64,000 nt of DNA, taken from the NCBI GenBank assembly GCA_021513715.1, contig CP084167.1:2560001-2624000 (forward strand), in the 5' to 3' direction. The DNA comes from Candidatus Heimdallarchaeum endolithica. GTDB taxonomy: Archaea > Asgardarchaeota > Heimdallarchaeia > Heimdallarchaeales > Heimdallarchaeaceae. Positions 3,449 to 11,863 of the stretch are shown here, one piece after another (within the stretch, counting starts at the first letter, position 1; each line of letters opens with the position of its first letter). The notes below the pieces were generated by a model. The model made no database searches. It saw only the letters and a list, made by a program, of their open reading frames with translations, and was not told where the DNA came from. Both the position numbers and the translations under genes were made by a program.

Positions 3449-3928
3449 CTATAAAATTAAACGATAAAGATAAGCATTTTCTCTATCTTCATAATATTTT
3501 CGAATAGTCCTGATTCGCTTAAAACCCATTTTTTCATATAGGTTAATAGCATAATTGTTAGTTACTCTTACTTCAAGTTTAATTGAATTAAATCCTAGTT
3601 CTTTTACTCTAGTTATGAAGTATCTAAGTATCATTTTTCCGTATCCTTTCTTCCTAAAATTTCTATGAATTGCTATAGAAAGTATATGTGCTTCAGACTT
3701 AAATGATGATCTTCCTCCAAGAATGAAACCTATTATCTTGCTATAAGAATTATTATTATTTGATAAATTAACATCAATTTCTAAAGCAAAGCATAGGTCA
3801 GGATTCTGAAAGAAAATTAAGGAAATATATAATTCAGGAAAAGGAAATGCAAATGTGATTCGCTCTAAATCATAAACATCAACAATATCTTCAGTTTGCA
3901 TTTCTCTTATCCGTATCATAAGTTTCAC
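3449..3928 (-). CDS. rimI: RimI/Ard1-like GNAT N-acetyltransferase
   Basis: HILSIAIH..FRKKGYG, LEVRVTN..AINLYEKMGF, KYYED.ENAY. The start may be a few codons downstream. Confidence 0.88.
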   Translation of the reverse strand: MKLMIRIREMQTEDIVDVYDLERITFAFPFPELYISLIFFQNPDLCFALEIDVNLSNNNNSYSKIIGFILGGRSSFKSEAHILSIAIHRNFRKKGYGKMILRYFITRVKELGFNSIKLEVRVTNNYAINLYEKMGFKRIRTIRKYYEDRENAYLYRLIL

Positions 3929-4000
3929 ATTTAGTAGTTATTGATTACAACCATAGTTTAACAGAAAAAAACTTTGTGTTCTGTTGAATAGTTTGAAATA

Positions 4001-4015
4001 GGGAAAGTTAAATAA
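4001..4015 (+). promoter_or_regulatory. BRE + TATA box for the structured RNA
   Basis: GGGAAAG followed by TTAAATAA (4008-4015), about 25 nt upstream of the first hairpin at 4036; archaeal promoter geometry. Confidence 0.6.
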
Positions 4016-4035
4016 GACTTTGAGTAGATTCTTAT

Positions 4036-4265
4036 GCCTTCTATCGAGGACTTGTTAGAGGTTGTTTATGACAAACGATGAAAGCAAGAGCAAAAAGAAG
4101 GCTACAGCCTATCATATACGGGCTCTTTACCAAGTTGAGTGTGACACTCAGAACAATGAGGTTGAGTCAACCCTGATAGGCTACATTGGGTTCTCCTGAG
4201 GAGCTCTGCTAGCAGATGTGGGATTGTCCCAAAGATGAAGCTTAGTGTTAGCCTTGGGGGAACCC
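4036..4265 (+). ncRNA. Multi-hairpin box H/ACA pseudouridylation guide RNA: two H/ACA units (4036-4106, 4107-4185) plus a third K-turn hairpin (4188-4265)
   Basis: Hp1: stem GCCTTCT(4036-42)/AGAAGGC(4096-4102), pocket, upper stem CTTGTT/AGCAAG, K-turn-like TAGA...ACGATGA, ACA at 4104-06. Hp2: GCCTATCA(4107-14)/TGATAGGC(4174-81), upper stem GGCTC/GAGTC, ACA at 4183-85, 14 nt from the upper stem. Hp3: 14 bp stem 4188-4201/4252-4265 with CAGA...AAGATGA and no ACA. Confidence 0.8.
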
Positions 4266-4328
4266 TTTAGTTATATTGAAACAGAAAAATTAAAAATAGG
4301 TTGAAATTAAGCAATTTAGAAGAAAATA

Positions 4329-4403
4329 GGGGTAGTGGTCTAGTGGTATGACAACGCCTTCACGCGGCGTAGGTCGCAGGTTCAATTCCTGCCTACCCCA
4401 CCA
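4329..4403 (+). tRNA. trnV: tRNA-Val(CAC), intronless, CCA encoded
   Basis: Acceptor stem GGGGTAG/CTACCCC, D arm GTC..GAC, anticodon arm ACGCC-TTCACGC-GGCGT, T arm GCAGG-TTCAATT-CCTGC, 3' ACCA. Confidence 0.97.
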
Positions 4404-4426
4404 CCAACAATTTGTTGAGAAATCAA

Positions 4427-5398
4427 ATGTCAGAATCAAATATTGATCACGGATTTATTGACCTTTTTTCTGGAGCTGGAGGTTTTAGTTCTGGGTTTAG
4501 ACTTGCTGGCTTTAAAGAATTACTAGTTATTGAAAGGAATCTCTCTGCCATAAAAACATACAACTTGAACCTGCCTGACGCAATTTGTATAAATGATGAT
4601 ATACGGAATATTCATTCTTTAGAAATAGAAAGAAAATGTTATCAAAAACCAACTGTCGTGTTAGCCTCTCCCCCTTGTGAACCGTTTACTTCTGCAAATA
4701 CCAAACGAAAACCAACAACATGGGAAAGATTTTTTGAAGATCCCCAAGGGGATTTGATTTTTCATGCAATAAGGATAATCAAAGATTTAAATCCTGAATT
4801 TTTTGTTATCGAGAATGTTGTACCTATTATTGATGGTGAAGGAAGAGAAATTATTCTTGAAGCTTTTGCTGACTCCAAATTCCCAACTATATATTTTAAT
4901 GTTATTCGTGCTGAAAAACATGGTTCTCCTTCTTCTAGAAAGCGTGTTTTTATTTCTAACATCAATCTTGATTTGGAGAAGAAAAAAATTGTTACTGTAG
5001 GTCAAGTTTTATCTGGTCTCCAAGATCCTTCCTATCCAAATGATCTTCCTAATCACTTTCTAACTCCTATTCCAGATAAAATCCAAAAGAGAATTCATCA
5101 AATCAAACCTGGAAACGCTGCTGTTTATTTTGAAGGTGCATCAAGTGAAAAATTAAATTGGATTAGGCTTGATAAAAACAAACTTTCTCCTACTGTGATG
5201 GGAAAATCTAGGTTTATTCATTTTGATCAAGATCGGGCTTTGACGATACGTGAGCATGGGCGATTAATGACTTTTCCAGATTATTATGAGTTTACTGGAA
5301 CCGTTGAAGAAATGTATAATCAAGTTGGAGAAGCAGTTCCCCCACTAATTTCCTATTTGATTGCAAAAAAAATTAAAGAAAAAATTTCTGAATCCTAA
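4427..5398 (+). CDS. Cytosine-C5 methyltransferase (orphan)
   Basis: Motif I DLFSGAGG, IV SPPCEPF, VI ENV, VIII R-x-R-VF, IX RLMTFPD, X QVGEAVPP. The ORF track starts at TTG 4412; ATG 4427 is preferred. Confidence 0.9.
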   Translation: MSESNIDHGFIDLFSGAGGFSSGFRLAGFKELLVIERNLSAIKTYNLNLPDAICINDDIRNIHSLEIERKCYQKPTVVLASPPCEPFTSANTKRKPTTWERFFEDPQGDLIFHAIRIIKDLNPEFFVIENVVPIIDGEGREIILEAFADSKFPTIYFNVIRAEKHGSPSSRKRVFISNINLDLEKKKIVTVGQVLSGLQDPSYPNDLPNHFLTPIPDKIQKRIHQIKPGNAAVYFEGASSEKLNWIRLDKNKLSPTVMGKSRFIHFDQDRALTIREHGRLMTFPDYYEFTGTVEEMYNQVGEAVPPLISYLIAKKIKEKISES

Positions 5399-8102: not shown

Positions 8103-8696
8103 TTATTTAATAAATGGTTTTCTAAACTTCAAAACTTCTTCTTCACTTTGTATAGCTAGTCTCGCTGCATGAGAAAAAAGATTCTCGACATTTTCAGCTG
8201 ATAAAGCAGATGTTTCTATGTAATCAAAGTTATTTTCTTTAGCGTATTCTTCTGCTTTTTCTCTTTCTACAGTTCTTGCATTAGTTAAATCGCTCTTATT
8301 TCCACATAAAATAATGGGTATTTCAGAACATTTTTTCTTTATTTCACTAACCCAAAAAGGAACATCATCGAATGTTGCAGTTTTTGTAATATCATAAACT
8401 ACAATAGCGACTTTTGCTCCTAGAAAATATTTCTGTCTGACAAACCCAAAAATCTCTTGTGCTCCTGTATCCCATAAGCTAATTCTAACTTTAACATCAT
8501 CAGTTAGTATGTCTTTAGACAAATTCTCGTTTAATTCCTCTTTTGTTAAGGATAGACTTTTAGTTAACCAACTTACACCCATTGTTGGAATATATGAATA
8601 AGAAAAGGTGTTCATTGTATACCTTCTTGCTAATGAGGTTTTACCAACAAAAGCTGAACCAATTGTAATTATTTTATATAAATGCCGTTCTATCAT
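8103..8696 (-). CDS. Rab-like small GTPase
   Basis: G1 GSAFVGKTS, G2 YIPTMG, G3 WDTGAQE, G4 GNKSD, G5 ETSAL. Likely start is ATG 8696, just after the upstream stop (track ORF extends to 8759). Confidence 0.92.
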   Translation of the reverse strand: MIERHLYKIITIGSAFVGKTSLARRYTMNTFSYSYIPTMGVSWLTKSLSLTKEELNENLSKDILTDDVKVRISLWDTGAQEIFGFVRQKYFLGAKVAIVVYDITKTATFDDVPFWVSEIKKKCSEIPIILCGNKSDLTNARTVEREKAEEYAKENNFDYIETSALSAENVENLFSHAARLAIQSEEEVLKFRKPFIK

Positions 8697-8698
8697 TT

Positions 8699-9547
8699 TT
8701 ATCTCCAAAATATTTCTACTAATTTTCTTTCGATGTTTATACTGCTTAAACGCCTCCATTCATCAAGAATCAACGGTTTTGTGTTTTTATTAATTAATTC
8801 TCTAAATTGTTCAGGACTAAAGTATTTTCTGATGATATCTACTAATTCAGAAGTGAAATTAAGGAATATTTCTTTCATTTGGCTACAGTTTTCAATTTCT
8901 GTTATCTGTATTGAGTTTAACTCATCTTTTATAAAAAATCCTTCCTTATTAAAGAAAAATAATTTATCAATTTCCTTATAATCATTTATTAGTTTATTAA
9001 CATCGATTCTTAATAATTGGTTAATTTCTTCCTCGTTGGATTGCGATTTTGTAGCTTTTTTTATTCCTGTACATAAAGAGTTTATAATATTCTCAAATAT
9101 TTCTAATAAATTCCTGAACTCAATATCTTTCACATGATTTGATATAATCGAATTAACTTTGAAAACTTCAGAAATTACCATAGACGGTGATAAAGGTTTT
9201 TTTACTAGTTTAATTTCATCTAGGAAATTTTTAGCTGTTTCTTTATCATAAATATCAAATGAGTATAGAAAGAGATTCATTAAAAAAAATAATTGAGAAT
9301 ATGCGATTCCTTCCTTTTGCTCTTGAGAAATCAGTACAAATATAAAATCATACTTTTCTTCAATTAATACAGTAGTTTTCTTAAAGATCACTTCTCGTAA
9401 TTGACCTAGTTCTCTCTGTTCTCCCATTTTTATAAATTCTAATAGCCCTGAAAAATGCTCTGGTTTAAGAATTAAATTTTCACTATTGGGTGTGTCTGTA
9501 AAGATAGTGTCATAGTTATTTTTGTTTAGTATATAAAAATTAGCCAA
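8699..9547 (-). CDS. Hypothetical protein with putative N-terminal longin/profilin-fold domain
   Basis: FYILNK...FSGLLEF...GQLREVIF....VLIEE...FIFVLIS pattern resembles Asgard longin-like domains; helical C-terminal half; translationally coupled to the GTPase. Confidence 0.5.
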   Translation of the reverse strand: MANFYILNKNNYDTIFTDTPNSENLILKPEHFSGLLEFIKMGEQRELGQLREVIFKKTTVLIEEKYDFIFVLISQEQKEGIAYSQLFFLMNLFLYSFDIYDKETAKNFLDEIKLVKKPLSPSMVISEVFKVNSIISNHVKDIEFRNLLEIFENIINSLCTGIKKATKSQSNEEEINQLLRIDVNKLINDYKEIDKLFFFNKEGFFIKDELNSIQITEIENCSQMKEIFLNFTSELVDIIRKYFSPEQFRELINKNTKPLILDEWRRLSSINIERKLVEIFWR

Positions 9548-9670
9548 TTAGTACACCTTTCTAATATTAATTAGAAAATAAATTTAAACTTATTCCTTTA
9601 TCAGTTTCTGTACTAACTTGTCTGATTTTTGTATTTCTTTCATTTGTTTTAGAAGTATAAAAAAAGTGGA

Positions 9671-11863
<2,193 letters not shown>

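Follow-up and report, generated by a model that had tools for sequence, protein, structure and literature searches.

A probable three-motif box H/ACA guide RNA of the Pab40/Afu4 family upstream of tRNA-Val in Candidatus Heimdallarchaeum endolithica

What does the gap upstream of the tRNA-Val gene of Ca. H. endolithica encode? The window (the whole stretch of DNA that was analyzed, 64,000 nt) contains 400 bp (3929–4328) between a divergent gene that we called by sequence as a GNAT (RimI-like) acetyltransferase (3449–3928, − strand) and tRNA-Val(CAC) (4329–4403, + strand), just as a sequence-only reading of the window had placed the gap between rimI and tRNA-Val. That reading had taken the gap to hold an unannotated H/ACA guide RNA, and had named Rfam and folding searches, covariation among relatives near tRNA-Val, and conservation of the ACA position as the checks to make. 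The acetyltransferase gene is a neighbor only, and its place beside the RNA is not conserved beyond the genus; the downstream tRNA neighbor is conserved across the host family. Immediately 3′ of tRNA-Val lies a C5 DNA methylase gene (4412–5398) in which PCE replaces PCQ, an order kept family-wide. Genes for a Rab-like small GTPase and a CDC48-type AAA ATPase are close by (8103–11860) and are typical of Asgard archaea.

We examined base composition, folding and promoter signals in the gap. The segment 4036–4265 is 46.5% GC, compared with 25.5% and 17.5% in its flanks and 30.8% genome-wide. The + strand of the gap folded into three back-to-back hairpins (z = −3.5), and 0 of 200 shuffled sequences were equally stable; an RNA from the minus strand was dismissed because of its weaker fold (z = −2.0). 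The three GC-enriched tandem hairpins of the sequence-only reading were thus recovered, as was the promoter that it had seen ahead of them: a BRE (GGGAAAG) and a TATA box (TTAAATA) occupy 4001–4014 (+). A TATA-like element recurs in most family members 28–30 nt before the first stem base, a G, with a variable spacer. From the promoter position, transcription would be expected to start near 4034.

The Rfam model RF00064 (HgcG/Pab40) matched 4034–4270(+) over its full length (44.3 bits, E 2.6e-10, model positions 1–276), and this was its sole match in the 3.33-Mb host genome. The score falls short of the 77-bit gathering cut-off, so that the cut-off misses the window RNA; some relatives score 52 bits. 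The remaining Rfam matches in the region scored at chance level and were dismissed. Searches for HgcF and HgcE gave no match, and their controls were likewise silent. DNA searches found the RNA in 29 of 30 host-family genomes, at ~70–74% identity outside the genus, and ahead of tRNA-Val(CAC) in every case where the contig extends far enough. A 59-pair model was then applied to 27 sequences; 93.7% of cells were paired, and two-sided changes occurred in 29 of the 59 pairs versus 15.5 in shuffles and 3–10 with slid partners, a control biased in the model's favor because the structure was drawn from the window RNA's own sequence. RNAalifold alone gave two-sided changes in 24 of 51 pairs. A descriptor scan of the whole genome ranked hairpins 2 and 1 at the top (−23.4 and −20.1), the next candidate reaching −14.8 and the best of a reversed-genome control −15.1. 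The same scan, which atypical guides lacking a lower stem escape, revealed no other H/ACA guides above background in the host genome.

These results bear on the simplest alternative, that the hairpins are chance GC-rich folds, a tRNA 5′ leader or a terminator with no guide function. The adjoining tRNA gene and the Rfam score under the cut-off would suit it; sequence conservation, specific rRNA complementarity, and phylum-wide homologs that lie far from any tRNA do not, and covariation, the descriptor scan and the permutation test described below effectively refute it. We concluded that the gap most likely encodes a real, unannotated small RNA that is the Asgard copy of the known three-hairpin Pab40/Afu4 family and that probably directs Cbf5 to three uridines in the active center of the ribosome. 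The RNA would be an independently transcribed box H/ACA guide of ~235 nt (4034–4270, + strand, ends approximate), homologous to Pab40/Pf7/Afu4 and to Haloferax sR-h45, an explanation to which we assign a probability of roughly 0.92. The claim of an unannotated guide therefore stood as to the gene, whereas the type of RNA is not an unknown one, being represented by RF00064 and sR-h45.

The anatomy of the three hairpins, all on the + strand, supports this identity strongly, including the archaeal-type multi-unit architecture that had been proposed. Hairpin 1 (4036–4102) consists of a lower stem (4036–42/4096–4102), a pocket (4043–49 and 4090–95) and, above the pocket, a 10-layer GA stem with a K-turn (4058–60/4076–81); its ACA box lies at 4104–4106, and the position is ANA in 27/27 family members. 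Hairpin 2 (4107–4181) has its pocket at 4115–23 (ACGGGC) and 4168–73 (CAACCC), an apical stem-loop at 4136–4150 and an ACA box at 4183–4185 (ACA in 26/27, AUA in 1). The K-turn of hairpin 2 has A for G at 4132 (the 2n position) in the host; 19 of 27 family members have G. Hairpin 3 (4188–4265) has a pocket at 4202–07 and 4247–51 and a K-turn at 4215–17/4233–38. Its box position (4262–4264) is degenerate: it reads ACC and is predicted to be fully paired, the lower stem extending over it, so hairpin 3 lacks a proper ANA box. Across the family this position is AUU (13), AUA (7) or ACU (3), with ACC in the host genus and ACA in distant Asgard homologs.

All three hairpins bear K-turns ~10 layers above the pocket, in keeping with the model of PMC4652768, and the order of lower stem, pocket and upper stem expected of archaeal H/ACA RNAs is supported by covariation. 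Measured from the closing pair of the upper stem, the ACA boxes of hairpins 1 and 2 lie 14 nt and 15 nt away, within the 14–16 nt expected of an ANA box, and the upper-stem-to-box distance is 14–15 nt for all three hairpins in 27/27 family members. The stems, pockets and T-ACA spacing that the sequence-only reading had described for hairpins 1 and 2 were therefore confirmed, and the position of the boxes proved to be conserved. It had also given the hinge as ACAGCC and denied it the status of an H box; the letters are correct and no H box is present, but GCC is already inside stem 2, and hence the hinge is ACA alone. The K-turns on every hairpin, the paired ACC at box 3 and the match to an Rfam family go beyond what had been seen before.

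We asked whether the host encodes the proteins that such an RNA would need. Genes for Cbf5, Nop10, Gar1 and L7Ae are all present, and the last three products pass profile cut-offs. Cbf5 has an intact catalytic GTLD motif, its N-terminal part is 97% identical to the Ca. H. aukensis PM71 counterpart, which marks the host as a Heimdallarchaeum, and its sequence is split by a LAGLIDADG intein whose splice residues are normal. Cbf5 function would thus depend on intein splicing, which counts as a point against the guide explanation. The intein (L068:2541-5060(+); G000:C1:1889040-1891559) is ~500 aa long and sits at VRKL|C...SSN|CHDIG; no intein occupies this Cbf5 site in any of the relatives checked (the sister species and six more), the closest having Ala or Val there. 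A word search of the literature for a Cbf5 intein returned only incidental co-mentions. In the mechanism that we propose, L7Ae would bind the K-turn of each hairpin, and Cbf5-Nop10-Gar1 would bind the lower stem and ANA box; each pocket would flank an unpaired U of pre-23S rRNA by pairing on both sides, and Cbf5 would isomerize that U to pseudouridine.

It could instead be supposed that the RNA binds Cbf5 and L7Ae mainly as a chaperone of rRNA folding, by pairing with H69, H89 and H92, and is not a modification guide. The degenerate box 3, the atypical pockets and the dual role of yeast snR10 in processing and modification speak for such a chaperone. We consider it highly improbable, since 27/27 family members retain the 10-layer GA stem and the 14–15 nt box distance and homologs are catalytically active (PMC2377435, PMC7075261).

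Under the guide explanation, the pockets should match rRNA. We used the host genome's own rRNAs as targets, scored 1240 rRNA uridines, and mapped positions to E. coli after correcting for the rrlA record, in which positions are one base ahead of the standard. Two-sided complementarity around rRNA uridines was found. The host 23S gene itself (L034:932-5067(-)) is 4136 nt long and is interrupted by AT-rich insertions at two places. The insertion near position 1905-2585 contains a LAGLIDADG-like ORF; the other is found at the L2449 site, and its ends are group-I-like (exon U, intron G). The host 16S and 23S genes lie ~110 kb apart.

Hairpin 1 paired around U2496, which ranked first among the 1240 uridines; 0 of 200–300 shuffles were as good. 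Given that the RNA is an H/ACA guide, hairpin 1 very probably directs modification of U2496. Hairpin 3 paired around U1915 in helix 69 of 23S, a target that the pocket nucleotides by themselves do not single out (13 of 200 shuffles were as good). Its pocket follows the H69 stem of the host family (GAGCUC versus UGAGCUU); in Odin the two sequences are AGAG and CUCU. Motifs 1 and 3 of Pab40 modify P. abyssi 2588 and 2016 in vitro (E. coli 2496 and 1915; PMC2377435). Hairpins 1 and 3 of the window RNA are predicted to target the same two sites, and the three motifs occur in the same order. By descent, we are confident that hairpin 3 is a helix-69 U1915 guide. In the two Asgard families that have only motifs 2 and 3, the 23S flank at U2496 is also altered (UUGGUACC).

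In Haloferax, a typical UN pocket can do without the ACA box, which becomes necessary when more bases are unpaired (PMC7075261). A wide pocket 3 goes together with ACA in distant Asgard homologs, and most host-family members have a tight pocket 3 that pairs U1917 together with a relaxed box; the latter combination fits the Haloferax rule, and therefore Psi1915 only is predicted. In the host genus, hairpin 3 has a U:U mismatch at 1917 as well as the buried ACC box. For these reasons hairpin 3 may be weakened, perhaps decaying, in the host genus, and we put the chances that it still works there at about even.

The target of hairpin 2 was more difficult to assign. The descriptor scan revealed a site at A-loop U2554 with UUC unpaired; there the pairing scored −21.3 kcal/mol versus −16.1 at U2586, and 2 of 200 shuffles were as good for the A-loop, in a pairing geometry that was relaxed after the A-loop site had appeared. 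The U at this site is the 5′-most unpaired one, and PMC7075261 gives the 5′-most unpaired U as the modified one. U2555 is often A in the Asgard genomes compared, and U2554 is kept in nearly all. U2257 came out on top only under loose scoring and was rejected because a 2x2 mismatch falls on the 3′ side, the important one. One Hodarchaeales 23S gene carries a ~310-nt insertion situated between the A-loop and U2580 (L190:1190-1500).

An alternative that keeps the same RNA has hairpin 2 guiding U2586 only and not the A-loop, which was also our initial reading. Haloferax sR-h45 SL1 is responsible in vivo for Psi2605 (= E. coli 2586; PMC7075261), and Muller et al. (2008) proposed 2586 for motif 2 of Pf7/Afu4. 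The site forms AACCC/GGGUU and ACGG/CCGU pairs in typical UN geometry and ranks first when geometry is strict; pairing is lengthened to CAACGG in some relatives, and one relative (G003) prefers 2586. Moreover, the invariant C of ACGG mismatches the A-loop of the host family. Besides the better A-loop score, this alternative is opposed by the invariant C that stands where the pocket starts and pairs with G2553, and by one genome (G041) that has C at 2586 yet keeps motif 2. Importantly, guides elsewhere follow A-loop variants, whereas the 2586 flank hardly varies. When the 5′ pocket strand was compared with the A-loop stem of its own genome in other Asgard families, four A-loop variants were matched (GAUGGGC/GCCCAUU, GACGGGC/GCCCGUU, GACAGGC/GCCUGUU, GAUAGGC/GCCUAUU). 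A permutation test over 14 Asgard families, which are not independent and whose pockets were read by eye, gave 81 Watson-Crick pairs between hairpin-2 pocket and A-loop versus 74.7 when permuted (p about 0.002). On the strength of the A-loop score and of these lineage-tracking pockets, U2586 as the only target was demoted, and we regard it as unlikely.

Our preferred assignment is that hairpin 2 probably guides A-loop U2554 with UUC unpaired. U2586 is a possible additional target, somewhat less likely than not. Pairing of the host-family pocket with the A-loop includes a C:A mismatch and amounts to 5/7 pairs, as many as at U2586; because the strand ACGGGC is mismatched to A2561 and on that side suits U2586 just as well, guiding of both uridines by hairpin 2 is plausible. 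These comparisons supply evidence on the disputed motif-2 target of the Afu4/Pf7 family, the A-loop or 2586. Motif 2 of Afu4 is reported to have been first assigned to L2601, which is in the A-loop (~E. coli 2555 when mapped as in PMC2377435); this assignment is disputed in PMC2377435 and kept in PMC4652768.

Purpose-built covariance models detected homologs in Hodarchaeales (22/22), in Odin, in Loki and in most other Asgard families sampled. Most of these have all three motifs, and two families have only motifs 2 and 3, as does Haloferax sR-h45. Full homologs were not found in the same-order families f2–f4, where some f3 genomes contained one- or two-hairpin pieces only. The 23S of f3, a sister family, has C at 2586. 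Most of the distant homologs possess a further K-turn (C/D-like GAUGA ... UGA), which encloses motif 1 by joining a 5′ leader with the stretch that follows box 1, and basal stems that enclose motifs 2 and 3 with each ACA in an internal loop; the host-family RNA is without these additions. The literature that we searched contained no description of H/ACA guides from Asgard archaea.

The sequence-only reading had placed the host in the lineage closest to eukaryotes and deemed the RNA informative on the origin of two-hairpin snoRNAs. The first point holds at the level of the class Heimdallarchaeia and not below it; for Heimdallarchaeum, the host, we take closeness to eukaryotes to be true at class level only. 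As to the second, the window RNA differs from eukaryotic two-hairpin snoRNAs in having three hairpins with K-turns, and ANANNA occurs in 0/27 sequences at hinge 1 and 1/27 at hinge 2. Asgard homologs are mostly three-hairpin RNAs with no true H box. The Hodarchaeales hinge ACAGGA was considered as a proto-H box and rejected: the bases after ACA pair with the segment before the hairpin, and the sequences are lineage-specific. It resembles ANANNA because its last bases are part of a covarying basal stem. The three-unit K-turn design is common to Pyrococcus, Archaeoglobus and most Asgard families sampled and is therefore old in archaea, and sR-h45 (PMC7075261) and N. equitans (PMC3491384) already provide archaeal examples with two hairpins. 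Judged by its predicted architecture, the RNA is an old archaeal design and not an intermediate towards two-hairpin snoRNAs, and its value for their origin is limited.

Its bearing on eukaryote origins lies in the target set, not the architecture. All three best-predicted sites (2496, 2554, 1915) are pseudouridines in yeast and human, and for relatives of eukaryotes the RNA yields concrete, testable predictions of rRNA pseudouridylation at these conserved positions. Yeast snR46, snR10 and snR191 guide Psi2865, Psi2923 and Psi2258, which are E. coli 2496, 2554 and 1915. Conceivably, one widespread Asgard guide installs 2496, A-loop 2554 and H69 1915, and the snR46, snR10 and snR191 pockets descend from its modules; we think this improbable. 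If it were true, hairpin 2 would be tuned to the A-loop, possibly switching to U2586, and descent would have proceeded by splitting and re-pairing of one ancestral RNA.

Lastly, we compared the window RNA with known guides. Like Pab40/Pf7/Pho40 (RF00064 HgcG) and Archaeoglobus Afu4, it has three tandem H/ACA motifs, K-turns and ANA boxes; it differs from the Pab40 family in its divergent sequence, in pockets retuned to host-family rRNA, and in a box 3 that is degenerate and paired. Its motif 2 best fits U2554, whereas that of Pab40 acts on P. abyssi 1932. Haloferax volcanii sR-h45 is a homolog of motifs 2 and 3 and shares the H69 target, but it consists of two hairpins with a linker of 56 nt, has an H-like box, and makes Psi1915, Psi1917 and Psi2586; the window RNA retains motif 1, and the tight pocket 3 of its family predicts Psi1915 only. 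Each of the three yeast guides is a snoRNA of its own, with two hairpins, Nhp2 and an ANANNA H box but no K-turn, and their likeness to the window RNA is in the predicted target sites. The window RNA would thus be an additional member of a known guide family.
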